Position numbers and translations under genes: made by a program | Shown: in pieces, positions 16,917 to 61,850 of the stretch | Layout of the letters: each line of letters starts with the position of its first letter | Numbering within the stretch: the stretch's first letter is position 1 | DNA from: Oceanipulchritudo sp. | GTDB lineage: Bacteria; Verrucomicrobiota; Verrucomicrobiia; Opitutales; Oceanipulchritudinaceae | Direction: 5' to 3' | DNA: 64,000 bases | Assembly (NCBI GenBank): GCA_049975345.1 | Contig: JBNGDP010000001.1 | Coordinates: 32,907-96,906, forward strand | Notes under the pieces: model-generated | Told to the model about the DNA's origin: nothing | Databases searched by the model: none | What the model saw: the letters and a program-made list of their open reading frames with translations, nothing else

Positions 16917-17939
16917 ATGAAGCTGCCACCGGAAACCAGCATCGTCGCCGATTCCCTCTGCAAACGTTTTGGGCGGACGGAGGCCATCCGGGATCTTTCC
17001 TTTACGGTAAAGCATGGCGAAATTGTCGGTTTTCTCGGACCGAACGGTGCCGGAAAAAGCACCACCCTGCGCATCCTGACGGGGGTCCTGCCGGCAACTT
17101 CCGGCCGTTTGTGGGTATGCGGGAAGGCCGTGCCTTGGCACCCCGCGGAAATCCGGAACCGGATCGGCTACATGCCCGAGAGCAATCCCCTGCCGGAAGA
17201 CATGCGGGTGGTCGAGTACCTGCGCTTCAGGGCCCGGATAAAGGGGATTCCCCGGAACAGGCGGAAGGCCCGTATCGAGCAGGCCATGGAAGTGTGCGAG
17301 CTGCACCGGAAAGCGCGCCGGCGGATCATCGGGACCCTGTCGAAAGGATTCCGGCAGCGGGTGGGGATCGCCGACGCGATCCTGGCCGCCCCGAGCATCA
17401 CCATCCTGGATGAGCCGACCATTGGCCTGGATCCGCATCAGGTGATCGCCATCCGCCGTCTTCTGGACAATCTGCGTGGCCAGACCACGGTCATCTTCTC
17501 CAGCCACATCCTCTCGGAAGTGGAAATCTCCTGCGACCGCATTCTCATCCTGAACCAGGGAACACTCGTCGCGGCCGGGACGGCAGCCGAGCTGCGGCGG
17601 GAATTTCTGCCGGGCTGTCATTTCCGCGTGGAAGTGGCCGGAGAGACGGACCGCCTCGGGGAGGAAATGCGTCGCCTCGGGGAGGACTGGTCCGTCGAGA
17701 TCCATCCGCAACCGGACGGGGAATTCCGGGAAATCTCCCTCATCAACCGCACGAACGGGGCCGACGGGGAACAGGTCCTGAGGGAGCTGTTCCAGGAAAA
17801 GAACCTCCGGATACGATCCTTTCATCGCATCCAGCCCAGCCTGGAAGACATTTTCCTGACCGCCACCCGGCGAAGCTGGGAACTTTCCCAGGACGACCTT
17901 GCCGCAGTGGCACCCACCCGGAAAGCAACGAGAAAATGA
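16917..17939 (+). CDS. ABC-2 type transporter ATP-binding protein (GldA-like)
   Basis: Walker A GPNGAGKST, signature LSKGFRQR, ILDEPT, SSH. Confidence 0.9.
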   Translation: MKLPPETSIVADSLCKRFGRTEAIRDLSFTVKHGEIVGFLGPNGAGKSTTLRILTGVLPATSGRLWVCGKAVPWHPAEIRNRIGYMPESNPLPEDMRVVEYLRFRARIKGIPRNRRKARIEQAMEVCELHRKARRRIIGTLSKGFRQRVGIADAILAAPSITILDEPTIGLDPHQVIAIRRLLDNLRGQTTVIFSSHILSEVEISCDRILILNQGTLVAAGTAAELRREFLPGCHFRVEVAGETDRLGEEMRRLGEDWSVEIHPQPDGEFREISLINRTNGADGEQVLRELFQEKNLRIRSFHRIQPSLEDIFLTATRRSWELSQDDLAAVAPTRKATRK

Positions 17940-18700
17940 CCCAGATCCTGCGTCTTACCCTTCATGAGCTGAAGAGCCTGTTTTACGCCCCGAGCACCTA
18001 CATCGCCATGGTCCTCTCCCTGCTCATGATGGGGTTCTTTTATTTCATGACCCTGCTGACGGTAAGCGCCGAGGAACAGGACCAGTTGCCCCCCACGCTC
18101 TTTTTCAGTCTTTTCTGGGTTCCGGTCCTGCTCATTGTCCCGATGCTCACCATGCGCAGTTTCGCCGAGGAACGCCGCCTCGGGACCATCGAGACCCTGC
18201 TGACAGCCCCCGTCAACCCCTCCCAGCTTGTTGTTTCCAAATTCCTCGCAGCCTACTGCTTTTATGTTCTGGTGTGGGGTCTTTCCATCGCTTTCCCGGC
18301 CATTACCTCCTTTTCCCTCCAGCAACCGGAGTTGCACGCGCGCCTCTTCCATGGAGGGGCCATGACCGGCGGGTTCCTCTTCATCGCCCTCTCCGGCTGC
18401 CTCTTCGTCTCCATCGGGATCTTCACCAGCAGCCTGACGCGCAGCCAGTTGGTCGCCGGCATGCTTTCCTTCAGCATCCTCTTCATGCTCATTGTCGGAA
18501 TCGCGGCCATCCACATGCTTCAGCAGGAATTGAGCACCGGCACGCTCCTCTCCGACACGGTTCTCGACTACTTCCAGATTTTCGATCACTTTGACGATTT
18601 CAGCCGGGGCCTCGTGGACACCCGGCCCTTCGCCTATTACCTTTCCGGAACCGTGGCCATCCTTGGTCTTGCCGTCCTTGTCCTCGAAACCAAACGATGA
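17936..18700 (+). CDS. ABC-2 permease (GldF-like)
   Basis: Six TM segments; TMRSFAEERRLGTIETLLTAPV; overlaps both neighbours by 4 bp. Confidence 0.88.
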   Translation: MTQILRLTLHELKSLFYAPSTYIAMVLSLLMMGFFYFMTLLTVSAEEQDQLPPTLFFSLFWVPVLLIVPMLTMRSFAEERRLGTIETLLTAPVNPSQLVVSKFLAAYCFYVLVWGLSIAFPAITSFSLQQPELHARLFHGGAMTGGFLFIALSGCLFVSIGIFTSSLTRSQLVAGMLSFSILFMLIVGIAAIHMLQQELSTGTLLSDTVLDYFQIFDHFDDFSRGLVDTRPFAYYLSGTVAILGLAVLVLETKR

Positions 18701-20181
18701 TCAAGATGTCCAAGTGGGAATCCTACCAGTTCGCAAACCGCCTGAAGTTCCTCAACAACTGCCTGCAGGTGCTGCTCATTTTCTCGCTGATTTTCGGCCT
18801 CAACTATCTGGCCATGCATCAGTTTCACCGCTTCGACCTGACGGAAAACCACCGTTACGCCCTCTCCCCGGAAACCCGGGCCTATATCCAGGAGCTCCCC
18901 GGCCCGATCCGGATCATCGTCACCATTCCCGGCGATTCCCCCCGGCAGGAGGAACAGGTCCTGTACCGCTATGTCAGCCAGCTCCTTCAGGAATACGTCT
19001 ACCAAAGCCGCAGGTCGGGACGCTTTCTCATCGAGGTTGAATACGTCGACATCTACAAGGACCTGGTTCGGGCGGATTTCCTCGCGCGCACCCACGGGCT
19101 CGACCAGCCGGATTCCCTTCTTGTCCTTTCCGGCGAGCGCCAGCGGCTGATCCGGGCCGATGAACTCCTCTCCTTCGCGAACCTGCGGCCGGTGACCTTC
19201 AACGGGGAATCCACTCTCACCTCGGCCATCATGGAGGTGACCCAGGAACAGTCCCCGAAAATCTACTTCCTCCAGGGCCATCAGGAGGTGGAACCCTCCG
19301 ATCCCTCGCCCCAGTTCGGTCTTTCCCATGTCACAAGGGAACTGCAGCTGCGCAATTTCACCATCGCCCGGCTGGATCTCACCAGTATCCCCGAAGTGCC
19401 CGGGGATGCTTCCGCCCTCGTCATCGCGGATCCCAAAGGCCCCCTCCTGACCTCCGAACTCGACAAGATCCGCAGCTACCTCTCCGACCGCGCCGGCCGC
19501 GTCCTGATCTGGGTGCGCCCGGGCGTGGAGACCGGCCTCCATCCCCTCATCGCCGAATGGGGGATCCGCCTCTCCGACCAGGTCGTCATAGAGCCCGATC
19601 CCGGATTCCGCGAAGCCAAGGGCACCCTCCTGGTCCGCAACTTCGGCGAACACCCCATCACCGAATCCCTCATCGAAAACAAGACCTTCCTCCTCTCGGG
19701 GTGGGTCCGCCCGGTCTTCCCGGTGCCCCCGCAGCCGGCGGATGAACGCCTCAGCTTCATCCCCCTTTTCGCCACCTCCCCCGAAAGCTGGGCGGAATCC
19801 TCCTACCAGACCGGCGCCGTCCCCTCCTTTGATCCCGGGGCCGATTTCAAGGGACCCGTCCCCATCGCCATCGCCGCCGAACGCAAGGCCTCCAGCCAGC
19901 TCGGGATCCGCGTCCCGGGCGGCCGGATCGTCGTCTTCGGGTCCGCCGATCTCTTCGCCAACCAGAACATCGCCTCCCTCGGAAATGTGAACCTCTTCTT
20001 CAATACCCTCAACTGGATGCTGGACCGGGACCGCTTTCTCATCATCCCACCGCGCCCGGTGGACTCCTACAAGCTCGCCCTCAGCCGGGACCAACTCCAG
20101 CAACTCGGCCTCCTCTTCCTCATCGTCCCGGGATCCGTCGCCGTGATGGGCCTGCTCGTTCACTGGATCCGCATCTCCTGA
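18697..20181 (+). CDS. GldG-like ABC auxiliary component
   Basis: N-terminal TM, RFDLTENHRYALSPET, IYFLQGHQE, RIVVFGSADLFAN, NVNLFFNTLNWM, C-terminal TM. Confidence 0.82.
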   Translation: MIKMSKWESYQFANRLKFLNNCLQVLLIFSLIFGLNYLAMHQFHRFDLTENHRYALSPETRAYIQELPGPIRIIVTIPGDSPRQEEQVLYRYVSQLLQEYVYQSRRSGRFLIEVEYVDIYKDLVRADFLARTHGLDQPDSLLVLSGERQRLIRADELLSFANLRPVTFNGESTLTSAIMEVTQEQSPKIYFLQGHQEVEPSDPSPQFGLSHVTRELQLRNFTIARLDLTSIPEVPGDASALVIADPKGPLLTSELDKIRSYLSDRAGRVLIWVRPGVETGLHPLIAEWGIRLSDQVVIEPDPGFREAKGTLLVRNFGEHPITESLIENKTFLLSGWVRPVFPVPPQPADERLSFIPLFATSPESWAESSYQTGAVPSFDPGADFKGPVPIAIAAERKASSQLGIRVPGGRIVVFGSADLFANQNIASLGNVNLFFNTLNWMLDRDRFLIIPPRPVDSYKLALSRDQLQQLGLLFLIVPGSVAVMGLLVHWIRIS

Positions 20182-21500
20182 TTTCCCGCCATGCGCTTCA
20201 AACTGACCATCCTCCTCCTTACCCTGAATGTCGCCCTCTTCGGCCTCATCTTCTACATCGACAAGGTCCGCAGCACCCGCAGCCTCTACGATTCCGATAC
20301 CCGCCTCATCCTCGATCCCCTTTTCCTCCAGGGTCTCGATAAAATCGAGATCGCCAGCTCCAACAGCGATATCCGCTGGGAATTCGATAAAGAGGGCGCT
20401 CAAACCTGGCTTGTCCGCTCCCCCATTCACTGGAAAGCCAATCCCTACGCCATCCAGCAGCTCCTCTTTCAACTCAAAACCCTCGCCTGGGAGTCCCGCT
20501 TCCCTGTCAGCCAGCTTCCCCAGGCCGGCCAGTCCCTCGAATCCTACGACCTCGAAGCTCCGCCGCTGCGCATCACTCTCCATAACGGCGCTTCCTCCCT
20601 CCCTCTCCAGCTCGGGGCCCCCACCGAAATCGGCAACCGCCTCTACATGATGTCACCGGATGGTGAATATATATTGGTGATTTCCCGTGGGCTACTGGAA
20701 ATCCTGCAGCGGGAGATGGAATCCTTTCTGGACAAGCGGATCTTCGGTCTGGGGATCGAGGAGAGCCGCGTGATCCAGATCCAGGACCGGTCGGCGAGCA
20801 ACGTACGGGTGCGGCTGGAGCGGGGCCGGGAAGGGTGGCGATTCATCTCCCCGATTGAAGCGCCGGGAGACACGGAACGGGTGGAGGCGATGATTCGGGA
20901 GTGGCAGGGAATGGAAGTGGAATGGGCGGAGGAGAGGCCGGTCTTGGATCCGGGCCTGGAAGGGAATGCGATCCGGTTGACCTTTGAAGGGCTGAACGAG
21001 CGGGAGACGCTGATCCTTGCCCCGACGGCGCTGGAAGGGGAGACCTTCCACCTGGCGAAGCGGGAGGCCTACGGGGCGGTCTTCAAGGTCGGGGCGGAGC
21101 ATGTGGAGCGGTTGCAGAACGCCCAGGAGGAGCTTCGGGAAAAGCGGATTCTGCATCAGCACGCAGCGGACTGGACCAGTTTGAAGATTGAATTCGGGGA
21201 ATTGAGCACGACGCTACAGCAGCTGGAAAGCGGTGAATGGCAGGTTCTGTACACGAGTCCGGGCGAAGGGCTGAGGACCCTGCCTGCGGATTCGAAGGCG
21301 ATCGAGGAGGTGCGGACCCTGGTCCGGACGATGGAGGCGGTCCGCTTTGTCAGCGACGCCCCCTCGGAGAACGATCTGATCCGCTACGGTCTGGACCAGC
21401 CGCAGCGGAGGATCAGCCTGCGAAAGGCATCGGGGGCCGGCATCGAGTTGCGGATCGGGGGAGTGAGTTCCGAGGGCGAGGGAACCCTTCTGTACGGGAC
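19100..21500. other. Strand-composition flip no. 1 (C-rich to G-rich on + strand), centre about 20650-20680
   Basis: Hand counts: 20581-20640 29 C/12 G; 20881-20940 6 C/32 G. Arm limits are approximate. Confidence 0.85.
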
Positions 21501-22107
21501 AACGACCGAGTCGGCATCCGTATTCCTGTTGCGCCCCCATATTCTTGCCGGATTGCCGCTGGATCCGCTGCATTACCGGGAACGAACCATTTTCTCCCTG
21601 CCCGATCCGGCCGGGTTGGCGGATATCCGGCTGCTTGAAAGGGCCTCTGGGGCGGACCTGCTTTCCGGTGAGGTTCCCCCGGAAGCGGGTACCCTTGCCT
21701 CCATCCGGGAAACGCTTTCGGCGTACCTACACGCCGTGGAAGTGGAAAGTTACCTGGACAGCTTTTTCAGCGATCCCCTGAGGGCCGGGGGCGACCGATT
21801 GATCGAGTGGCCCTGGCTGCTCGAGGCCGATGTCACCCATTCCCAGGCTTCCACAACCGCGGAGGGAACGGAACAAAAGGTTCGTTTCCACATCTCCCGC
21901 CGCCTCGGAGGAACAACCCAGTATATCGGGGATCCTGCTTCGGGTCTGGTTGGCAAATTGCCTGTGGATATCATCGAGTGCCTTGATCCTTTGCTGGTGC
22001 GCTTCCCGGAGAACCCCGGCCCGCCGCCGGAGACCGGGGAACCCGCTTCCGCAACGGAGCCGGAAAAGGGGGAACAAGCCGTCATTGAATCCAACCCGGC
22101 CCCCTAG
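20191..22107 (+). CDS. DUF4340 domain-containing protein (repeated domains)
   Basis: N-terminal anchor; repeated YDL/YGLDQPQRRISL and LQLGAPT/LRIGGVS patterns; usual position after a GldG-like gene. Confidence 0.7.
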   Translation: MRFKLTILLLTLNVALFGLIFYIDKVRSTRSLYDSDTRLILDPLFLQGLDKIEIASSNSDIRWEFDKEGAQTWLVRSPIHWKANPYAIQQLLFQLKTLAWESRFPVSQLPQAGQSLESYDLEAPPLRITLHNGASSLPLQLGAPTEIGNRLYMMSPDGEYILVISRGLLEILQREMESFLDKRIFGLGIEESRVIQIQDRSASNVRVRLERGREGWRFISPIEAPGDTERVEAMIREWQGMEVEWAEERPVLDPGLEGNAIRLTFEGLNERETLILAPTALEGETFHLAKREAYGAVFKVGAEHVERLQNAQEELREKRILHQHAADWTSLKIEFGELSTTLQQLESGEWQVLYTSPGEGLRTLPADSKAIEEVRTLVRTMEAVRFVSDAPSENDLIRYGLDQPQRRISLRKASGAGIELRIGGVSSEGEGTLLYGTTTESASVFLLRPHILAGLPLDPLHYRERTIFSLPDPAGLADIRLLERASGADLLSGEVPPEAGTLASIRETLSAYLHAVEVESYLDSFFSDPLRAGGDRLIEWPWLLEADVTHSQASTTAEGTEQKVRFHISRRLGGTTQYIGDPASGLVGKLPVDIIECLDPLLVRFPENPGPPPETGEPASATEPEKGEQAVIESNPAP

Positions 22108-22113
22108 GAGTAC

Positions 22114-24816
22114 ATGCGTCCGCTCTTCCATTTCCGGAAAATTGCATGGAAGGGGGGCAGTTTCTTCTGCCACTGCCTGAATCTCGTTCTCGCCGCCCTG
22201 GCAATCGGACAGGGCGGCATGCTGGTCCTGAATCTTGTGCAACGGGAAATTCCCCTGCCCGACCGCTTGGCTAATTGGGCCCTCAACGAACTGGGGCCCG
22301 GCGGATTCCGTGCCAGCTGGTCCAGTGTTGTCTTCGACCTGCGGGGAGGGCTGCTCCTGGATGACTTCGTCCTTCAGGATGGCGGGACCGATGAAATCAT
22401 TCTCACCGCCCGGCAAACCCGGATGCAATGGGATCCCTTCAACCTTCTCGTCGCCGGAATCCCCCCTTTTTCCGAGGTCGAGGCCCGCATGGTCCGGATC
22501 TACATGCCCGCCAGCATTTCCCCCAGCGGTCTCAACGAACCCGCCCTCTTCGTCCAGAATGCGGAACTGAAGGAGGAGGAGGGACGTCTCCTGCTCTCCT
22601 CCCTTTCCGTCCAGACGGGGGGCCTCGAGCTTTTCATCAGCGGGTCCGCTCCCCTCGACCTTTTGATCGGAACGAAGCCTGCCACGGATGGAGTCAACCG
22701 GATTACCCTCTTGCAGAAACTCAACCAGCTGCCGCCCGACCTCCATGCCAGCGCCCTCGTCGAATGGGAAATGTCACCGGCACGAGAACACCAGTTTGTC
22801 ATCGAGGGAATCATCCCGCAATATCACTTCAGCGGAGCCGCTTTCCATGAATTGACCGGCAATGCCCGCCTCCTGCTTTCCCCCGGCGCCGCCCGTTTGG
22901 TCAACCTGCAACTGGACGGACGGATCGGGTCCCTGCCGGACTTCCCCGCTCTCCCCGCGTCCGTCAAAACCTTCATTTCCCATCCCGTCCCTTTCCACCT
23001 CCGGGCCGACGGCCCCCTCCAAAACTGGGGCTCTTTCAGCTTGCCGACAAGCGTGCGCCTGAGCCTCTATCCGCGTTCCCCCGCCCTCCCCGTCGACCAG
23101 CTGCATCTCGCCACCAACCTCTGGAACCCCTCCAACCCCGTGTTCTGGATCGCTTCCAGCCCCCGCCTTTTCGCCGCCGGAACCGCCCGCTTTCTGCCCG
23201 ATGCCCCGGGACCCCTTCCCCTCTCCCTCGCCTTTCGCGCCTCCCTGCCCAACCCTTCCCTCGTCCATTTTTTCAAGGGACCCCCGGTCGATTTCCGGCT
23301 CGAGAACCTTCAGGCCCGCCTTCTCCGCATTGAGGCCGCTTTCGATCCCCTTTCCCGGACCCTCGCCGGTTCCCTCCTCTGCGATTCCCTTCTTGTCGCT
23401 CATACCCCTTTCGCCCACCTGCACTCCCCCTTTTCCCTCCAGCCCCACTCCCTTTCCTTCCACCCCATCCGCGCCACAAAGGCCCATGATGAGTTCGCCT
23501 CCGGTTCCTATTTCCATCACCTCCCCTCCTCCCGCTTCTCCCTCCATGCCATTGGGCAGGTCTTCCCCGCCTCCCTCGATTCCCTCCTCGGTCAATGGTG
23601 GCCCAGCATCTTCGCCGATATCCAAACCCCCGCCCCCATCCCGGCAGATGTCACCGTTTGGGGACTCTGGCGGGAGGAAAACTCCCTGCAAAGCATGACG
23701 CGGGCATGGGGGCGCGGGGCGCGTTACCGGGGCGTGGAGGTACCGGAGCTGGAGGTACGGGTCCGCAGCAATGGGGAGTGGGCCTTTGTGGAGAAGCTGG
23801 AAGCGCGTTTCGGGGAGGGGAGCATACGGGGGCAGGTTGCGCTGCGGTCCAATCTGGAGGACAGCGAACCGTACCGTGCGGTGATCATCGACATGACGAG
23901 TGACGGGCCCTGGGAGGCCGTGGTGGGGGCGAGCGGCCTGGACGGACTGGGGCAGCTGGCTTTTACGGGGCGACCTCGTGCAGGGGCGAAAGGGACGGTC
24001 TGGCAGGACGCGGGCAATGGATTTGACAAGGAGGCGGTGGCGGATCTGGCGTTCAACCTGACGCAGGGGGAGGGAACCTGCACGTGGCAAGGCCTGACGA
24101 TGGAGGGGCTTTCCGCCACGGGCCAGGCCGTGGGTTCCTCGCTGGAGGTGAAGCGTCTGAGCGGACGGTTTGCGGAAGGCGTCTTCACCGGGGGCATGCG
24201 GGTGGAGGACTGGGAAAGGGAAGGGATGCGGCGGAAGGAATTTCAATTCCAGCTCTTTGACGCGCAGTACGGCGAGGCCATGCGTCAATTGACGGGGCTT
24301 CTGGAGGATCCCGAAGCGGTGCGGGAATCGCTGTTGGGCGGAGCGGACAGGGGCCGTCTGGACACCTCGATCCGGATGGCCACGGGTGGGGCCGTGGGAA
24401 AGGCTGTGGGGGAAGGGTGGGTCTGGCTGCGGGATGCGCAGGTGGGGGAGATCCACCTGCTTGGAGGGCTTTCCCGTTTTCTTGACCGGATGGGGCTTGA
24501 TTTCAGCAGTCTGGACCTGAACGCGGCAACCCTGGAATGGAAGCTGGCGGAGGGCATCCTGAGCATAGAGAAGGGGTTGGTAACCGGTCCGGCGCTCGCG
24601 ATGGAACTTTCAGGATTCGCGGACCTTGCGAGCAAAAACCTGGCCCTTGGGGCGGAAGTCACGCTCTTCAGCGGATTCATGGGCAAACTGCTCTCCCCGG
24701 TGAGCGAAACCCTGAACTTCGACCTGACGGGACCGCTGGACCAGCCAAGCTGGCAGGTGCGCCTGAGGCCATTGCGCTGGTTCCAGAACCGCCTGAACAG
24801 GGTCCCCATGCCCTGA
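22114..24816 (+). CDS. AsmA-like family protein (AsmA_2-type C-terminal region)
   Basis: 900 aa, single N-terminal TM, beta-rich; C-terminus LEWKLAEGILSIEKGLVTGPALAMELSGFADL...FDLTGPLDQPSW is typical of AsmA-like ends. Confidence 0.65.
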   Translation: MRPLFHFRKIAWKGGSFFCHCLNLVLAALAIGQGGMLVLNLVQREIPLPDRLANWALNELGPGGFRASWSSVVFDLRGGLLLDDFVLQDGGTDEIILTARQTRMQWDPFNLLVAGIPPFSEVEARMVRIYMPASISPSGLNEPALFVQNAELKEEEGRLLLSSLSVQTGGLELFISGSAPLDLLIGTKPATDGVNRITLLQKLNQLPPDLHASALVEWEMSPAREHQFVIEGIIPQYHFSGAAFHELTGNARLLLSPGAARLVNLQLDGRIGSLPDFPALPASVKTFISHPVPFHLRADGPLQNWGSFSLPTSVRLSLYPRSPALPVDQLHLATNLWNPSNPVFWIASSPRLFAAGTARFLPDAPGPLPLSLAFRASLPNPSLVHFFKGPPVDFRLENLQARLLRIEAAFDPLSRTLAGSLLCDSLLVAHTPFAHLHSPFSLQPHSLSFHPIRATKAHDEFASGSYFHHLPSSRFSLHAIGQVFPASLDSLLGQWWPSIFADIQTPAPIPADVTVWGLWREENSLQSMTRAWGRGARYRGVEVPELEVRVRSNGEWAFVEKLEARFGEGSIRGQVALRSNLEDSEPYRAVIIDMTSDGPWEAVVGASGLDGLGQLAFTGRPRAGAKGTVWQDAGNGFDKEAVADLAFNLTQGEGTCTWQGLTMEGLSATGQAVGSSLEVKRLSGRFAEGVFTGGMRVEDWEREGMRRKEFQFQLFDAQYGEAMRQLTGLLEDPEAVRESLLGGADRGRLDTSIRMATGGAVGKAVGEGWVWLRDAQVGEIHLLGGLSRFLDRMGLDFSSLDLNAATLEWKLAEGILSIEKGLVTGPALAMELSGFADLASKNLALGAEVTLFSGFMGKLLSPVSETLNFDLTGPLDQPSWQVRLRPLRWFQNRLNRVPMP

Positions 24817-25100
24817 GAAAAGGCGGGCCTTCAGTGGAAGCGGATTTCAATTGCCCTCGGCGGACAAAAGTTATCAGACTGCCCGCCACAATGGAATCAA
24901 CAGAGGAGGAGAGCCTTGGAAATCAAAGAGATTAAAGCGATTGTCGACCTCATGAAGCGGTCGGGACTGACGGAGTTCCAGCTGGAAGAGAAGGATTTCA
25001 AGCTGAAGATCTGCCGGAAGAGCGATGAAGTGCAGACCATTTACCAGGCGGCGACGCCGGCGCCGTTTCCGGTGACACCGCCGCCGGTCCCCACGGCGTC
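22900..25100. other. Strand-composition flip no. 2 (C-rich to G-rich on + strand), centre about 23645-23690
   Basis: Hand counts: 23401-23460 34 C/3 G; 23701-23760 13 C/33 G. Arm limits are approximate. Confidence 0.9.
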
Positions 25101-25383
25101 CGCCCGGAACACCCCTTCGCCGATGGAGGAAAATGCCGTGGAAGACAACGGCACCTACATCCGTTCCCCCATGGTGGGAACCTTCTACACCGCCCCCTCC
25201 CCGGAAAGTCCGCCCTTTGTCACCGCCGGCGACCCGGTAACCGAGGAAACGGTCGTGTGCATTGTTGAAGCAATGAAGGTGATGAACGAAATCAAGGCGG
25301 AAATGAAGGGGAAGATTGCCGAGGTTCTGGTGGAAAACGGGGACAGTGTCGAGTACGGGCAGCCCCTTTTCCGCATCCAGTGA
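24916..25383 (+). CDS. accB: Acetyl-CoA carboxylase biotin carboxyl carrier protein
   Basis: TTG start; [10 protein letters not shown]; biotinylation motif EAMKVMNE. Confidence 0.96.
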
Positions 25384-25408
25384 CGCTCCGGGGTTCACAG
25401 GCGCTGAC

Positions 25409-26788
25409 ATGATGAAAAAAATCCTCATTGCCAACCGGGGGGAAATCGCCCTTCGCATCATCCGGGCCTGCCGGGAGCTCGGGATCCAGACGGTGGCCGT
25501 TTATTCGGAAGCGGACGAGCAGTCCCTGCACGTGCAACTGGCCGACGGGGCCATCTGCATCGGTCCCCCGGCCAGCACGGAATCGTACCTTCGCGCGGAG
25601 CGCATCATTGCCGCCGCGGAAATCGCGGACGTGGACGCCATTCATCCGGGGTATGGGTTTTTATCGGAGGATCCGGACTTCGCGGAGCAGTGCGAGGAGT
25701 GCAAGATCAAGTTCATCGGGCCCCGCTCCTCCTCCATCCGCATGATGGGGGACAAAGCCACCGCCCGGGCGACGGTCAAGGAGGCGGGGGTGCCGACGGT
25801 TCCCGGCAGCGAAGGTGTGGTGCGGGATGCGGAAGAGGCCCTCCACATCGCCGAAAAGATCGGCTTCCCGGTCATCATCAAGGCCGTCGCCGGCGGCGGC
25901 GGACGCGGCATGCGTCTCGCGCACAATGCCATGGCCTTCAAACGGGAGTTTTCCGCGGCCGGCAACGAGGCGGAAAAAGCCTTCGGCAACGGGGACGTCT
26001 ATATAGAGAAGTTCATCGAGGAGCCCCGCCACATCGAATTCCAGATCCTTGCCGACGAGCACGGCAATGTCGTGCATCTCGGGGAACGCGACTGTTCCAT
26101 CCAGCGGCGTCACCAGAAAGTGGTGGAGGAGTCCCCTTCCCCCTTCATGACCCCCGAGCTGCGCGAAGCGATGGGGGAGGCGGCCGTCAAGGCGGCCCGC
26201 GCCTGTGGCTACGCGAACGCCGGGACCATTGAATTCCTGGTGGATAAGAACCGGAATTTCTATTTCATTGAAATGAACACCCGCATCCAGGTCGAGCACC
26301 CGGTTACCGAGGAAGTGACGGGCATCGACCTCATCAAGGAACAGTTCCGCATCGCCGGCGGCGAGGAATTGAGGTTGGCGCAGGAGGACGTGCAGCTGAA
26401 CGGGCACGCCATCGAAGTGCGGATCTGCGCGGAGAACCCCTCCATGAACTTCGCTCCCAGTCCGGGTGAAATCAGTCTCTACTTCCCCCCGGGCGGGCAC
26501 GGCGTCCGCGTGGACAGCCACATCTACGGCGGGTACACCGTTCCCAAGTATTATGACAGCATGATTGCCAAGGTGATCACCGTGGGCCGCGACCGCGACC
26601 TTGCCCTCGCTCGCATGAACCGGGCCCTGAGCGAATACCTCATCCGCGGTATTTTCACAAACATCGGGTTTTCCCGTTCGATTATCAACGATCCGGAATT
26701 CGTCCGGGGGAATTTCACAACCCGCTTTATCGAGGAATTCATGCAGCGAACACCGAAAACGCTTTTCGAAAGCAAAATTCATCCCTAA
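25409..26788 (+). CDS. accC: Biotin carboxylase
   Basis: [59 protein letters not shown]. Confidence 0.97.
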
Positions 26789-29037: not shown

Positions 29038-29492
29038 AAGTTAGCATTGGATTTGATCATGGCGCCATCGGCCTGCGGGAGGCGGTGCTGCGAAGCTTGG
29101 AGGAGGCCGGCCACGAAGTGACCGACCACGGGACCGATTCCAGCGAATCGGTCGACTACCCGGACTACGCGCGCGATGTCACCGCCGACATTGTCGAGGG
29201 CCGCGCGGAGGCCGGCATCCTCTGCTGCACGACCGGAATCGGGATGTCCATGGCCGCAAACAAGGTGAAGGGCATCCGCGCCGCCCTGGTCCGCTACGAG
29301 GACGAGGCCGCGCTCACCCGCCAGCACAACGACGCCAACGTCCTCTGCATGGGGGCCCTGCACACCACGCCCCACGAGGCGGCCCGCCTCGTCAAGGCGT
29401 TCCTTGAAAACACCTTCACCGGGGCCGATCATCCGCGCCATTCCCGCCGGGTCGGAAAATTCATGGAATGGGAAAATACCTCCTGCCTGTGA
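29034..29492 (+). CDS. rpiB: Ribose-5-phosphate isomerase B
   Basis: GFDHGA, SVDYPDYA, CTTGIGMSMAANKVKGIRAA, RQHNDANVL, RHSRRV. Confidence 0.95.
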   Translation: MKVSIGFDHGAIGLREAVLRSLEEAGHEVTDHGTDSSESVDYPDYARDVTADIVEGRAEAGILCCTTGIGMSMAANKVKGIRAALVRYEDEAALTRQHNDANVLCMGALHTTPHEAARLVKAFLENTFTGADHPRHSRRVGKFMEWENTSCL

Positions 29493-32408: not shown

Positions 32409-33875
32409 ATGGCCCCCGCGCCAAACAAGCCCCGAACGGACTCCCCGAAAAGCCGACGACAGCGGTTGAGGGAATTCCTCAGCAGGGGGATCTGGGAAGC
32501 CGGCCTTGGCGAGGAAACCAGCCTGAAGGGACAATGGGTCGCCTTTCTGCGGATCCTTTCCATTTCCTGGAGGGGACTGCTCGAAAACAGGCTCTTCAGC
32601 CGTGCCGCGGCATTGAGTTACTCCTCCCTCATCGCCCTTGGCCCGCTGGTGGCCATCGTGGTCTTCCTTTCGAGTTCCTTTGTGCGCACGGACGCGGAAA
32701 CACAGGTAAAACGGGCCCTGCTGTTTGTCGCGCCCTCCCTGCAGGAATTGATCACCCTGGAGGAGGTCCCGGGAGCCGGATCCGAGGAGGAGCGGATGGC
32801 CACCGCCCTCGACACCCTGATTTCCCAGATCGTCGAGGGAGCCCGGGAACTGTTGAGCCAGATCAACACGGCCGGCTCCAAGACTTTCGGGGCGATGGGG
32901 TTCCTCATCCTGATCTGGGTCGTGATCCAGTTACTGACCTCGATCGAGACCACCCTCAACCAGATCTGGGGCGTTCACCAGGGCAGGCCCTGGAGCCAGC
33001 GCATTGTCTTCTACTGGACCTTTGTCAGCCTGGGGGCCCTGCTCGGGTTGGGTTCCACCGCCCTGTTTTCCGCGTCGAATATCGCCGGCATGTTCGACTG
33101 GGTGCCCTTTGGCAGCGACATGAGCACAATGCTGCTCAACATCTCCCCACTTCTTTCCTTCTTCATGCTGGTCGTCCTGCTGGCCCTCTTCTACCGCTTC
33201 TTCCCCAACACCAGCGTGCGCCTGAAGCCGGCCTTCATCGGCAGCCTTCTCACCGCCAGCCTCCTGTTCCTGAACAATTATCTCAGCATCCTCTACGTTC
33301 ACCGGGTCATTTCCTTCCAGAGCCTTTACGGATCCGTGGGCATCATCCCGGTCCTCATGATCGGCCTGTACTTCTTCTGGGTCCTGATCCTTCTCGGCGG
33401 GCAGCTTACCTACGCCGTACAGAATGTCGACTTCCTTGCCAACCAGGCCGCCTGGGACCGCATCAGCCCGGGTGCCCGTGAGCTGCTGACCCTCTCCGCC
33501 TTTCTCCAGATCGCCCGCCGTTTCCATGCCTGTGAACCGGCTCCCACCATGAACGAGCTCAGCACCCGACTGCATGTTCCCGTCAACCTCGTCAATGAGG
33601 CCCTGCAGGTGCTGGAGGAACTCGACTGGATCACCCGGATCACCATCGAGGAAAGGCGCAGCGAATCCGAAAGTGTCGGCTTCCGCCCGGCCCGGCCGCT
33701 GGAGACCTACACCCTCTCGCGCTTCCGATCAGCGGTGGAGGAAACCGGCGACTCCACCATCCGGGCCAATCTCCAGCAAACCGATCCCCTTCTGGAAAAA
33801 TACCGCAAGGCGGCCCTGTGGCATGAGGAGGATTCCTTTTGCCAGACCCCGCTCGAGACGCTCCTGCAGGAGTGA
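32409..33875 (+). CDS. YihY/BrkB family inner-membrane protein with C-terminal winged-helix (Rrf2-like) domain
   Basis: RAAALSYSSLIALGP, IETTLNQIWGV, LYRFFPN, SLYGSVGIIPVLMIGLYFFWVLILLGGQL; soluble C-terminal tail. Confidence 0.88.
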   Translation: MAPAPNKPRTDSPKSRRQRLREFLSRGIWEAGLGEETSLKGQWVAFLRILSISWRGLLENRLFSRAAALSYSSLIALGPLVAIVVFLSSSFVRTDAETQVKRALLFVAPSLQELITLEEVPGAGSEEERMATALDTLISQIVEGARELLSQINTAGSKTFGAMGFLILIWVVIQLLTSIETTLNQIWGVHQGRPWSQRIVFYWTFVSLGALLGLGSTALFSASNIAGMFDWVPFGSDMSTMLLNISPLLSFFMLVVLLALFYRFFPNTSVRLKPAFIGSLLTASLLFLNNYLSILYVHRVISFQSLYGSVGIIPVLMIGLYFFWVLILLGGQLTYAVQNVDFLANQAAWDRISPGARELLTLSAFLQIARRFHACEPAPTMNELSTRLHVPVNLVNEALQVLEELDWITRITIEERRSESESVGFRPARPLETYTLSRFRSAVEETGDSTIRANLQQTDPLLEKYRKAALWHEEDSFCQTPLETLLQE

Positions 33876-57354: not shown

Positions 57355-57382
57355 TTGCCATCGCGGGTCGTCGACCTACCTT
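57355..57382 (+). promoter_or_regulatory. Putative sigma70 promoter for rpmB
   Basis: TTGCCA-N16-TACCTT; CAGGAG SD downstream. Confidence 0.6.
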
Positions 57383-57410
57383 GAGCCGCTTTTCCACAGG
57401 AGATCATACC

Positions 57411-57641
57411 ATGGCACGCATTTGTTCAGTCACCGGTAAACGCCGGACCACCGGCAGCAAGATCCACCGCAAGGGCCTCACCAAGAAGAGCGGCGGCATC
57501 GGCACCCACATCGCCAAGATCACCAAGCGCACCTTCAAGCCCAACGTGCAGCGCGTCCGCGTTCGCATGCCCAACGGGCAGGTCAAGCGCGTCTGGGTTT
57601 CCGCCAAGGCCCTCAAGGCCGGCCTCGTCGAAAAGGCCTGA
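57411..57641 (+). CDS. rpmB: 50S ribosomal protein L28
   Basis: MARICSVTGK...TKRTFKPNVQRVR...RVWVSAKALK. Confidence 0.96.
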   Translation: MARICSVTGKRRTTGSKIHRKGLTKKSGGIGTHIAKITKRTFKPNVQRVRVRMPNGQVKRVWVSAKALKAGLVEKA

Positions 57642-57666
57642 GCGCGGCTTCCAGCCTTTTGATGCC

Positions 57667-57700
57667 AAACCGGCCGCTTCCCCCGCTGCCGGTTTTTTAT
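57667..57700 (+). terminator. Intrinsic terminator after rpmB (possibly bidirectional)
   Basis: AAACCGGC 57667-74 / GCCGGTTT 57687-94, followed by a T run. Confidence 0.7.
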
Positions 57701-57722
57701 TTCCCGGGCCCGATTGCTCGGT

Positions 57723-58484
57723 TCAGATCGAGGGATCGAACCACTGCAGCGTTTCACCAAGTCGGGCCACTTCGCCGATAATGACCACCGCGGGCGCCCC
57801 CAGGCCCGCTTCCTTCACCCGCCAGGCAATGTCAGCGAGGGTCCCCCGCACCGATTTCTGCCGGGGTGTCGTTCCCCACTCCACCACGCTGGCCGGCGTC
57901 CCCGCCGCGCGCCCTCCGTCAACCAACCTCCGGCAAATCTCCTCCAGCCGCCCCATCGACATGTACAGCACCAGCGTCGCCCCGCTGCGCGCGTGCGCCT
58001 CCCAGTCCACCATGCTCTCCCCCTTGTCCGGTTGCTCGTGCCCGGATATGAACGTCACCGCGCTGCTCCATTCCCGGTGGGTCAACGGGATCCCGCAGTA
58101 GGCCGCGCATCCGAGCGCCGCCGTCACCGCCGGTACCACTTCATACCGGATCCCCGCCCGCCGCAGCGCCTCCGCCTCCTCCCCGCCCCGGCCGAATATG
58201 AACGGGTCCCCGCCCTTCAGACGCACCACCCGCCGACCCCTCCCTGCCAGCGCGATCAATAACTCCACGATCTTCTCCTGAACGATGCTGTGAAAGCCCG
58301 AACGCTTCCCCACATAGTGCAGCTCACACCCCTCCTTCACCCAGCCCTTCATCCGCTCGTCCACCAGGTAGTCGTACACAAGATCGTCACACTTCCCGAT
58401 CAGCTCCCGCCCTTTCACCGTGATCAGGTCCGGATCCCCCGGACCCGCCCCCACCAGATAGACTGCTCCCTGCGCCTCCTTCAT
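57723..58484 (-). CDS. cobA: Uroporphyrinogen-III C-methyltransferase (SUMT/CysG-A)
   Basis: [55 protein letters not shown]. Confidence 0.95.
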
Positions 58485-58593
58485 CGCCTCCCCCTATTCC
58501 CTACCCCCACTCCCGCCTGCCTGTCGATGCCCCTTTTATGGATTTTTGCTTGTCAAAACAAAGTTAATCAATAGTTCATTACCTAATATTGTC

Positions 58594-59316
58594 ATGATTA
58601 CGGGAAAAACAAGGGAAAAAAGGACTGTGGCGGGCTGGCTGGAGGGGCTGGGGGCGGAAGAGCGTGTGGCGTGGGCTCTGGAGCGGTACGGGGAAAGGCT
58701 GGCGCTGTCGACGAGTTTCGGGGGGCAATCGGCGGTGATGCTGCATCTGGTGACGCGGCTGAGGAGGGACATCCCGGTGATATTCGTGGACACGGGATAT
58801 TTGTTTGCGGAGACGTACCGGTATGCGGAGGAGATGCGGGAGCGGTTATCGCTGAACCTGAAGGTGGTGACCCCCTTGTGGAGTGCGGCGCGGCAGGAGG
58901 CGGTGCACGGGAGGCGCTGGGAGCAGGGGCTGGAGGGGCTGGAAGGCTACAACCGGGACAACAAGGTGGAGCCGATGAACCGGGCGCTGAAGGAACTGGG
59001 GGCGGAAGCCTGGCTGAGCGGGCTGCGGAGGAGCCAGTCCCGGTCGCGGGCGGAGTTACCGGTGGTGCAGAAGCAGAACCGGACGGTGAAGATCCACCCC
59101 ATTGTGGACTGGACGGAGAAGCAGGCCTACGCGTACATGCGGGAACACGGGCTCCCGTTCCACCCGCTCTGGGAAAAGGGGTATGTCAGCATCGGGGACT
59201 GGCACAGCACGAGGCCCCTCGCGGAGGGGATGAGCGAGGAGGAAACCCGCTTCGGTGGTCTGAAGCGGGAATGCGGGCTGCACGAAGGCAGCGGACAGGC
59301 CGACTGGCAGATCTGA
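58594..59316 (+). CDS. cysH: Phosphoadenylyl-sulfate (PAPS) reductase
   Basis: [28 protein letters not shown] (no CC pair), SGLRR, PIVDW, GYVSIGD, ECGLH. Confidence 0.93.
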
Positions 59317-59337
59317 GGGGGGGTGGGACCGGTCGGA

Positions 59338-61850
<2,513 letters not shown>

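Follow-up and report, generated by a model that had tools for sequence, protein, structure and literature searches.

A mid-gene flip in strand composition in an Oceanipulchritudo DUF4340 gene as one wall of a genome-wide, one-directional C-for-G sawtooth

Within the 64,000-nucleotide (nt) stretch of contig JBNGDP010000001.1 considered here (positions 32,907 to 96,906; hereafter the window), taken from an Oceanipulchritudo sp. assembly, a gene encoding a DUF4340 protein switches abruptly and in mid-frame from codons ending in C to codons ending in G. This switch, designated flip no. 1, is one wall of a strand-composition sawtooth that recurs genome-wide and is one-directional, such that the top strand passes sharply from C-rich to G-rich at the wall side of each tooth and returns gradually on the far side. 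The organism is placed in the Puniceicoccaceae (Opitutales, Verrucomicrobiota), within the genus to which Oceanipulchritudo belongs, and its asymmetry is indicative of an as yet undescribed process that exchanges C for G in a strand-specific manner, not of a replication origin.

The flip within the DUF4340 gene

That flip no. 1 is real is confirmed at the four-fold degenerate (four-fold) sites of the gene: codons 1-157 carry 7 G and 65 C at these sites (skew -0.81) while codons 158-300 carry 51 G and 13 C (+0.59), a contrast with a Fisher p of 1.5e-17, and past codon 300 the skew fades to +0.34 and then to +0.04. Silent C gives way to mostly G within ~15-50 bases. The maximum-likelihood change-point is placed between the four-fold sites at 20643 and 20658 (2-lnL support interval 20640-20691), cumulative raw skew reaches its minimum at window position 20657, and raw GC skew in 200-nt windows moves from -0.43 (20400-20599) to +0.40 (20800-20999). 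An earlier reading of the same letters, referred to below as the original prediction, had reported a mid-gene switch on the basis of 29 C and 12 G at 20581-20640 and of 6 C and 32 G at 20881-20940; a recount returns exactly these numbers, and the switch is upheld by the persistence of the skew at four-fold sites. Gene orientation, which that prediction had dismissed as an explanation, indeed provides none, since the + strand is the coding strand and the Pfam DUF4340 match crosses the flip.

The wall, its arms and the sequence elements found on it are the following, in window coordinates:

20643..20658, no strand: wall of flip no. 1, four-fold C to G; maximum-likelihood change-point and cumulative-skew minimum
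17936..20650, + strand: left arm, top strand C-rich and G-poor, spanning the genes for the GldF-like and GldG-like proteins and the first 153 DUF4340 codons
20660..21700, + strand: right arm, top strand G-rich, four-fold skew +0.7, falling to ~0 by roughly DUF4340 codon 500
20191..22107, + strand: DUF4340 gene, 638 amino acids (aa); Pfam DUF4340 match at residues 73-243, frame intact and colinear with orthologues
20653..20666, + strand: short inverted repeat TCACC-GGAT-GGTGA with a 5-bp stem, seen in the sequence and listed by a terminator scan as weakly terminator-like
20666..20675, no strand: perfect palindrome AATATATATT, in which a -10-like TATATT can be read on both strands
20649..20658, + strand: 10-mer GATGTCACCG on the wall of flip no. 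1, an identical word sitting on flip no. 2

Along the left arm the bias strengthens toward the wall, with four-fold skew going from -0.3 to -1.0. The flip is not confined to silent positions, as skew at first and second codon positions also changes sign, from -0.21 to +0.22 (percentiles 0.3 and 94).

The change-point lies on, or just 5' of, the inverted repeat and the palindrome, both of which were found where the original prediction had placed them. The 17-mer TGTCACCGGATGGTGAA at the inverted repeat is identical in the closest relative, L037. In the terminator scan the weak 5-bp stem TCACCGGATGGTGA is followed by ATATATATTG, a tail that is not a clean U run, and the whole lies inside an open reading frame (ORF) that is translated through. 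The palindrome occurs once in the window, where 0.07 copies are expected, and this copy is the only one in the 4.06-Mb genome; its TATATT, on both strands, is the sole promoter-like word at flip no. 1. It does force rare codons, as had been proposed, with ATA making up 3.9% of Ile codons and TTG and CTA 9.8% and 1.2% of Leu codons, respectively. As a sufficient cause of the flip, the palindrome is ruled out by other alternating-AT runs, at which no consistent flip is seen. Three copies of the 10-mer GATGTCACCG are present in the window, against 0.22 expected (20649-20658, 23647-23656 and 29175-29184, all +), and the two that sit on mid-gene walls do so in different reading frames. Its 21 other genomic copies, namely the one at 29175-29184 and 20 more, show no flip, and its coincidence with both mid-gene walls is treated as unexplained. 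Across the wall, inverted matches are only short and compositional, and within 17000-26000 no known RNA family was matched at E <= 1.

A one-directional sawtooth across the genome

The genome, a metagenome-assembled genome of 4.06 Mb in 233 contigs, was scanned with a gene map from our own simple prediction (2,886 genes, 86% coding), and transcription units and terminators were likewise predicted. Using 400-nt half-windows and steps >0.5, the raw-skew scan yielded 33 steps from C-rich to G-rich and none in reverse. A second scan, using 60 four-fold sites per side and steps >1.0, yielded 79 up-steps (the walls) and 2 down-steps, compared with 14.8 and 2.3 when four-fold bases are shuffled within genes and with 0.9 and 0.6 under a null of gene orientation only. 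Averaged over the 79 walls in 250-nt bins, the left arm reads -0.62, -0.43, -0.30 and -0.18 and the right arm +0.58, +0.51, +0.39, +0.28 and +0.18; arms are ~1-3 kb long, ~1 kb on average and up to ~3 kb at the flips of the window. The ordinary replication-like component of skew, by comparison, amounts to +/-0.02-0.10 per contig. In a scan within genes, two flips in the window stand apart from all other steps (delta 1.45 and 1.46); a third step, of delta 1.28, lies 416 nt into a gene with a probably miscalled start, and those remaining are <=1.07 and of both signs. Only two walls are thus found deep inside genes, and both are in the window.

Two further flips in the window share the polarity of flip no. 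1:

23637..23700, no strand: flip no. 2, best split 23667-23673, inside a 900-aa gene at 22114-24816 (+)
58484..58546, no strand: flip no. 3, in the divergent promoter gap between cobA and cysH

Flips no. 1 and no. 2 are ~3 kb apart in consecutive genes. At flip no. 2 the four-fold sites of 160 codons on each side change from 9 G and 77 C to 60 G and 19 C, and first/second position skew moves from -0.38 to +0.28 (percentiles 0.0 and 98). Because the left arm of this flip has the most C-skewed first and second positions among all 450-nt coding chunks of the genome, the 900-aa protein itself, for which no Pfam or NCBIfam match was found, has been reshaped. The G-ending arm of flip no. 2 extends into accB and accC; accB, encoding the biotin carboxyl carrier protein, lies at 24816-25316 (+) and was missed by the gene caller used. 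Around flip no. 3, cobA and cysH are both G-ending (region 57381-61503), with coding four-fold skews of +0.77 and +0.79. The left arm there comprises cobA, on the minus strand, followed by a plus-strand gene with a coding skew of -0.86, and the right arm comprises cysH followed by the 3' end of a minus-strand gene with a coding skew of -0.60.

The arms follow the DNA strand, whichever way the local genes point. Around the 18 divergent walls, the outward-strand skew in genes that face the centre is +0.53 at distances of 800-1200 nt and +0.31 at 1200-1600 nt, where +0.18 is expected, and this excess matches that in outward-facing genes (+0.14 vs -0.18). The asymmetry is, moreover, a pure exchange of C for G. 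At four-fold sites within 700 nt of the 79 walls, C and G fractions of 0.63 and 0.22 on one side become 0.22 and 0.63 across the wall, which amounts to a log-odds shift of 2.07 (an 8-fold change in odds), with A and T fractions constant at 0.07-0.08. Two-fold sites show no such shift: C/(C+T) at pyrimidine-ending (NNY) codons is 0.700 in one arm and 0.710 in the other (log-odds shift -0.05), and G/(G+A) at purine-ending (NNR) codons is 0.704 and 0.741 (0.18). First/second position GC skew shifts by ~0.1 between arms, in the same direction as four-fold skew. The C-for-G exchange therefore brings with it a shift in amino-acid composition, with P/L/S/H-type codons giving way to G/V/E/R/W-type codons across flips no. 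1 and no. 2.

The walls are linked to the gaps between genes. Of the 79, 36 fall at co-directional, 18 at divergent and 18 at convergent junctions, and the other 7 lie within called genes. Steps at convergent junctions form a shifted unimodal distribution (mean +0.37) of which the convergent walls are the tail, and these walls result from a general preference for C on the coding strand; the distributions at co-directional and divergent junctions are heavy-tailed. Across co-directional junctions the reset rises with the gap, going from -0.15 to -0.11 at gaps <=10 nt and from -0.26 to -0.01 at gaps >150 nt, and genes that come first at divergent gaps have starting values of +0.04 and +0.08. Along transcription units, taken as series of same-strand genes separated by <=40 nt, four-fold skew is near 0 at the start, reaches a plateau of -0.18 within ~1.5 kb and stands at -0.24 at the end. 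Convergent 3' ends stay at the plateau (-0.18 and -0.21), whereas 3' ends that precede a promoter-bearing gap are richer in C (-0.26), and the C-rich arm therefore belongs to the gap downstream. Across the flanks of 35 tRNA genes, four-fold skew on the sense strand rises from -0.29 (500 nt upstream) to +0.11 (500 nt downstream), a mean up-step of 0.40. Words of the TTGACA, ATTAAT and ATAAAA types are enriched at walls, and a search for a longer motif common to them returned none, only generic AT-rich and TTGACA-type words and no Chi-like word. At intragenic AT islands, up-steps >0.5 are weakly enriched (3.9% vs 1.2%, p = 0.002).

The most G-rich genes are the first genes at divergent gaps, including those for LacI, ArsR and Rrf2-type regulators, PIN toxin-antitoxin modules, cysK and cobA/cysH. 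Genes for EF-Tu, GAPDH, PGK and TPI have ordinary skews (-0.05 to -0.33), by which translational selection for C-ending codons is ruled out. Also rejected was the possibility that C-richness compensates for missing terminators: a recognisable intrinsic terminator is present in ~13% of units, and 3' ends of terminator-bearing units have a skew of -0.26, vs -0.21 in the others. As separate observations, contig C9 carries dense teeth at ~21-58 kb (outside the window), with nearly every gene or unit going from ~+0.7 to ~-0.8 in a region rich in signal-peptide proteins and LacI-type regulators, and the profile is flat in housekeeping regions, for example on contig C30 (EF-Tu, glycolysis).

The position of the mid-gene walls is conserved. 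Relatives were compared at one syntenic locus, with orthologues 46-66% identical; a close relative by which substitutions could be polarised was looked for, and none above 66% amino-acid identity was found. In the closest, L037 (65% identity), both mid-gene walls fall at the same codons, with four-fold bins of -0.2, -0.2 and -0.0 followed by +0.4 and +0.5 in the DUF4340 gene, and of -0.7 and -0.3 followed by +0.5, +0.2 and +0.8 in the orthologue of the 900-aa gene. The cultured isolate O. coccoides CK1056 (GCA_010500615.1; L038, identical to L008) shows the walls in weaker form, and they are present as well in two further species (L002/L030 and L009/L024); they are not present in L003-L007. 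Whether orthologues flip at the same codon had been raised in the original prediction, and they do so clearly in L037 and more weakly in CK1056 and the two other species. Both mid-gene walls, at DUF4340 codon ~157 and at codon ~515-520 of the 900-aa gene, coincide with stretches of peptide that are strongly conserved, LYMMSPDGEYILV and DVTVWGLW. In a small sample, a TAnnnT word in AT-rich context at the EYIL codons was found in 4/4 step-bearing orthologues (the window gene included) and 1/5 step-less ones, and in L037 a TATGTT lies a few codons upstream of the EYIL position. In L010 (genome G007), from a species of the same genus, the whole DUF4340 orthologue and its flanks are extremely C-ending (-0.4 to -1.0), with a weak step at the shared codon, from which it follows that the strength of the bias varies greatly between species.

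Explanations for the asymmetry

Most walls lie in promoter-bearing gaps, and the pattern is therefore read as a mutational asymmetry that starts at transcription starts. Specifically, a start-site-anchored, outward-polar C:G to G:C mutational asymmetry, probably tied to transcription poorly coupled to translation, is the explanation that we tentatively prefer, at a likelihood somewhat short of even. A polar process would begin at points located mostly in promoter gaps and run both ways for ~1 kb, replacing C by G on the outward-running strand through an asymmetry of damage, repair or synthesis. Transcription is a candidate for this process, being polar, kilobase-scale and promoter-anchored, and promoters firing in two directions could supply both arms. 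Amplitude peaks at regulators and, presumably, in antisense arms rather than with expression, and the variant in which transcription is uncoupled from translation is favoured for this reason: the non-template strand may be exposed, or R-loops may form, on poorly translated transcripts such as those of regulator genes and antisense or untranslated RNAs, possibly in a self-reinforcing manner if G-rich RNA gives stabler hybrids. A chemically plausible route from C to G would be damage to exposed cytosine followed by abasic-site bypass with insertion of C, a route inferred from eukaryotic APOBEC/UNG/REV1-type spectra. Under this reading the wall at 20643-20658 would be an intragenic two-way start, with an internal sense start and an antisense start at or beside AATATATATT, kept in relatives, and the palindrome may act as the promoter; the left arm of flip no. 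1 would then represent a long footprint, antisense to the GldF-like and GldG-like genes.

Several observations weigh against this reading. To our knowledge, no strand-asymmetric C:G to G:C mutation pathway is established in bacteria, and known transcription-associated asymmetries are dominated by transitions, yet no shift of C:T or A:G is seen here. Amplitude does not track expected expression, as the G-rich extreme is made up of regulators, toxin-antitoxin modules and cys genes whereas genes for EF-Tu and glycolysis are ordinary, and the two arms across co-directional junctions are uncorrelated (r = 0.01). A scan of 20400-20900 for a sigma-70 consensus (-35 and -10 elements, 16-18 nt spacing) found no promoter, no AT-rich element is present at flip no. 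2, and alternating-AT runs elsewhere in the genome lack a consistent flip.

A broader form of the same proposal is possible but rather unlikely: that Puniceicoccaceae, and perhaps other members of the PVC (Planctomycetes-Verrucomicrobia-Chlamydiae) group, harbor an undescribed process acting from promoter points outward and converting C:G to G:C on one strand only, and that the mid-gene walls of the window are two-way starts conserved in the genus, with long antisense arms over ABC-transporter genes. Such an outward process would have to be strong enough to swap nearly all silent C for G over a kilobase and to reshape proteins.

Among the alternatives, recombination or gene-conversion hot spots combined with a blind spot in mismatch repair are unlikely to be the explanation, even though they account for the specificity of the C-for-G exchange without a transition signal. 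Tracts of fixed polarity would here be produced by 3'-end invasion, and a C.C mismatch would escape MutS while G.G is corrected, such that the transferred strand gains C; the predicted polarity, in which the strand with its 3' end toward the centre gains C, fits the arms. Poor recognition of C.C by MutS is established in E. coli and in pneumococcal Hex studies. In addition, both mid-gene walls lie on the most conserved peptide and nucleotide blocks, where exchange between diverged DNAs would resolve, and the sawtooth is strongest in accessory-type regions, for example on contig C9. On the other hand, the words common to walls are generic and promoter-type rather than Chi-like, no mosaic signal is found (relatives are ranked alike in four segments), nothing indicates that recombination starts at walls, and both the promoter-gap link and the dependence on gap size are left unaccounted for. 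Selection on RNA, which would keep the 5' parts of units G-rich and C-poor and the stretches before promoters C-rich for Rho loading (Rho utilisation, or rut, sites with C>G), insulation from read-through or elongation speed set by CTP, is likewise a doubtful candidate, and somewhat more so. In its favor, the gradient tracks transcription units rather than single genes, Rho may dominate termination given that intrinsic terminators are recognisable in only ~13% of units, weakly translated types (regulators, toxin-antitoxin modules) make up the most G-rich genes, and opposite 5' and 3' GC skews in fungi have been discussed as a CTP ramp (PMC3315797). The C-rich, G-poor left arm of flip no. 1 also fits a rut-type region in composition, but the two-fold sites do not follow. 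Indeed, two-fold sites are static while four-fold C:G odds change 8-fold, although selection for C or G in RNA should move both, and a transversion-specific bias of mutation, repair or conversion is therefore favoured. Additionally, terminator-bearing units are not less C-rich at their 3' ends (-0.26 vs -0.21), convergent 3' ends carry no extra C, arms extend into antisense-oriented neighbours, and a wall in the middle of an ORF has no obvious role in termination.

It is very improbable that the flip is driven by the protein, such that a conserved change in composition from P/L/S/T-rich to G/E/R/V-rich pulls silent sites with it through context or avoided intra-strand G:C pairing. First/second position skew flips too at flips no. 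1 and no. 2, and a step in total nucleotides is found in nearly all species of the genus, even where four-fold sites show none, but these shared extremes can equally be read as nucleotide pressure reshaping the protein. Furthermore, first/second position and four-fold skew are uncorrelated genome-wide (r = 0.036, slope 0.09), the skew expected from amino-acid family and next-base context is -0.11 on either side of flip no. 1, and RNA folding across the wall is no better than in shuffles (z = -0.6); by the first two of these results, an explanation from amino acids or context is ruled out. The original prediction had likened the site to a miniature replication origin or bidirectional unwinding site, and of this the origin-like polarity stands, as on either side of the centre the strand that runs outward 5' to 3' is G-rich. 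A miniature origin, or any other two-way start of DNA synthesis, would also suit the unique AT palindrome at the wall and the likeness of the sawtooth to the skew domains between eukaryotic origins. Nevertheless an origin is highly improbable and was not borne out: ~80 walls per 4 Mb lie mostly at gene junctions, with a reset that scales with the intergenic gap; DnaA boxes in 17000-26000 amount to two 1-mismatch TTATCCACA words (21963 and 23787), with none at the wall and no cluster; flip no. 2 has no AT-rich core; the replication-like component of skew is small; and the coupling of G with T that is classical for replication is not seen. The wording "bidirectional unwinding site" nonetheless comes close to the reading preferred here, a two-way start of a polar process. 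Least credible of all is an assembly chimera or recent mosaic import that joined opposite codon dialects. The genome is, admittedly, assembled from a metagenome, and the wall sits on a conserved block, where an assembler or recombination could switch, but the frame is intact and colinear, the same-codon step recurs in independent assemblies that include a cultured isolate with a 1.19-Mb contig, strict genome-wide polarity is not expected from joins, and the far sides of the teeth fade without a block edge. Relatives are ranked identically by amino-acid identity in all four segments of the DUF4340 gene; the two halves of the gene, whose possible difference in origin had been raised at the outset, thus agree in this respect, and a mosaic origin is ruled out.

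Known skews and the gene context

Two-way strand asymmetries have been described at vertebrate transcription start sites and CpG islands (Polak & Arndt; PMC2817419, PMC2927911). As at these sites and at GC-skewed R-loop promoters, where skew changes sign at the start point, runs outward on both sides with the non-template strand G-rich and decays over ~1-2 kb, the average profiles obtained here, over the 79 walls and by junction type, show an outward non-template strand that is G-rich on both sides and fades within 1-2 kb. The vertebrate asymmetries, interpreted as a side effect of transcription, or else of replication or recombination that begins at those points, are eukaryotic and transition-dominated, with GC and TA skews coupled, whereas the present pattern occurs in a bacterium as a pure C-for-G exchange with four-fold skews of +/-0.6-0.8, has two walls within ORFs and relates to starts that are predicted rather than mapped. 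In unicellular fungi, genes are known to carry GC skews of opposite sign at their two ends, 5' and 3' (McLean & Tirosh 2011, PMC3315797). They too form a gene- or transcript-polar GC gradient without an AT gradient, affect the composition of protein ends, correlate weakly with expression and have no known mechanism, but they are C-rich at the 5' end and G-rich at the 3' end (the opposite sign), are far smaller in amplitude and have not been described with mid-gene walls.

Among bacterial systems, GRINS are duplicated regions >500 bp at >80% identity with correlated GC and TA skews (G+T vs C+A; PMC8256042). They resemble the present case in their intense, abrupt skews inside bacterial ORFs, in proteins recoded yet unbroken, in an unknown mechanism and in a suspected link to gene conversion. 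GRINS are ruled out here, as the region is single-copy (blastn of 17900-24900 against the whole genome returned the self-match only) and lacks a TA component. The skew switch at bacterial origins likewise goes from C-rich to G-rich on the top strand, but occurs at one site per replicon with Mb-scale arms, DnaA boxes and G accompanied by T, in contrast to the ~80 sites of this genome, which have arms on the kilobase scale and lack both DnaA boxes and any T/A component. Hooper and Berg reportedly described, in 2000, how codon and nucleotide usage changes along genes of E. coli. Those gradients are said to be similar in that third-position usage shifts systematically with distance from the gene start; they are said to be weak and gene-level, whereas the sawtooth is unit-level, with sharp walls and near-complete replacement of C by G. 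A literature search of incomplete coverage, and thus weak as evidence, found no description of a bacterial sawtooth at the scale of transcription units that involves C-for-G only.

Local strand asymmetries serve to find origins and start sites and to infer DNA damage and repair in vivo, and the combination of strict polarity, kb-scale arms, pure C-for-G exchange and silent-site amplitudes of +/-0.6-0.8 would constitute a new mutational or conversion footprint. Its cause is directly testable, as O. coccoides CK1056 is cultured and belongs to the same genus. Should walls indeed coincide with start sites, promoters in uncultured relatives, intragenic and antisense ones among them, could be mapped from silent-site skew by itself. 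The altered amino-acid composition means that nucleotide-level pressure visibly shapes proteins, and in practical terms the pattern distorts predictions of codon usage, horizontal transfer and origins and creates long false antisense ORFs.

Upstream of the DUF4340 gene lies a cluster of ABC-transporter-type genes on the same strand:

16917..20181, + strand: upstream cluster genes (GldA-like, GldF-like, GldG-like)
16917-17939, + strand: GldA-like ABC ATPase
17936-18700, + strand: GldF-like permease
18697-20181, + strand: GldG-like ABC_transp_aux protein

Opposite the GldG-like and DUF4340 genes runs an antisense open frame of 648 aa (18637-20583, -), which exists because the + strand uses C-ending codons almost exclusively. 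A wrong choice of coding strand is ruled out, given the + strand Pfam match across the flip and an antisense frame that matches no family; this frame could, all the same, be miscalled as a gene.

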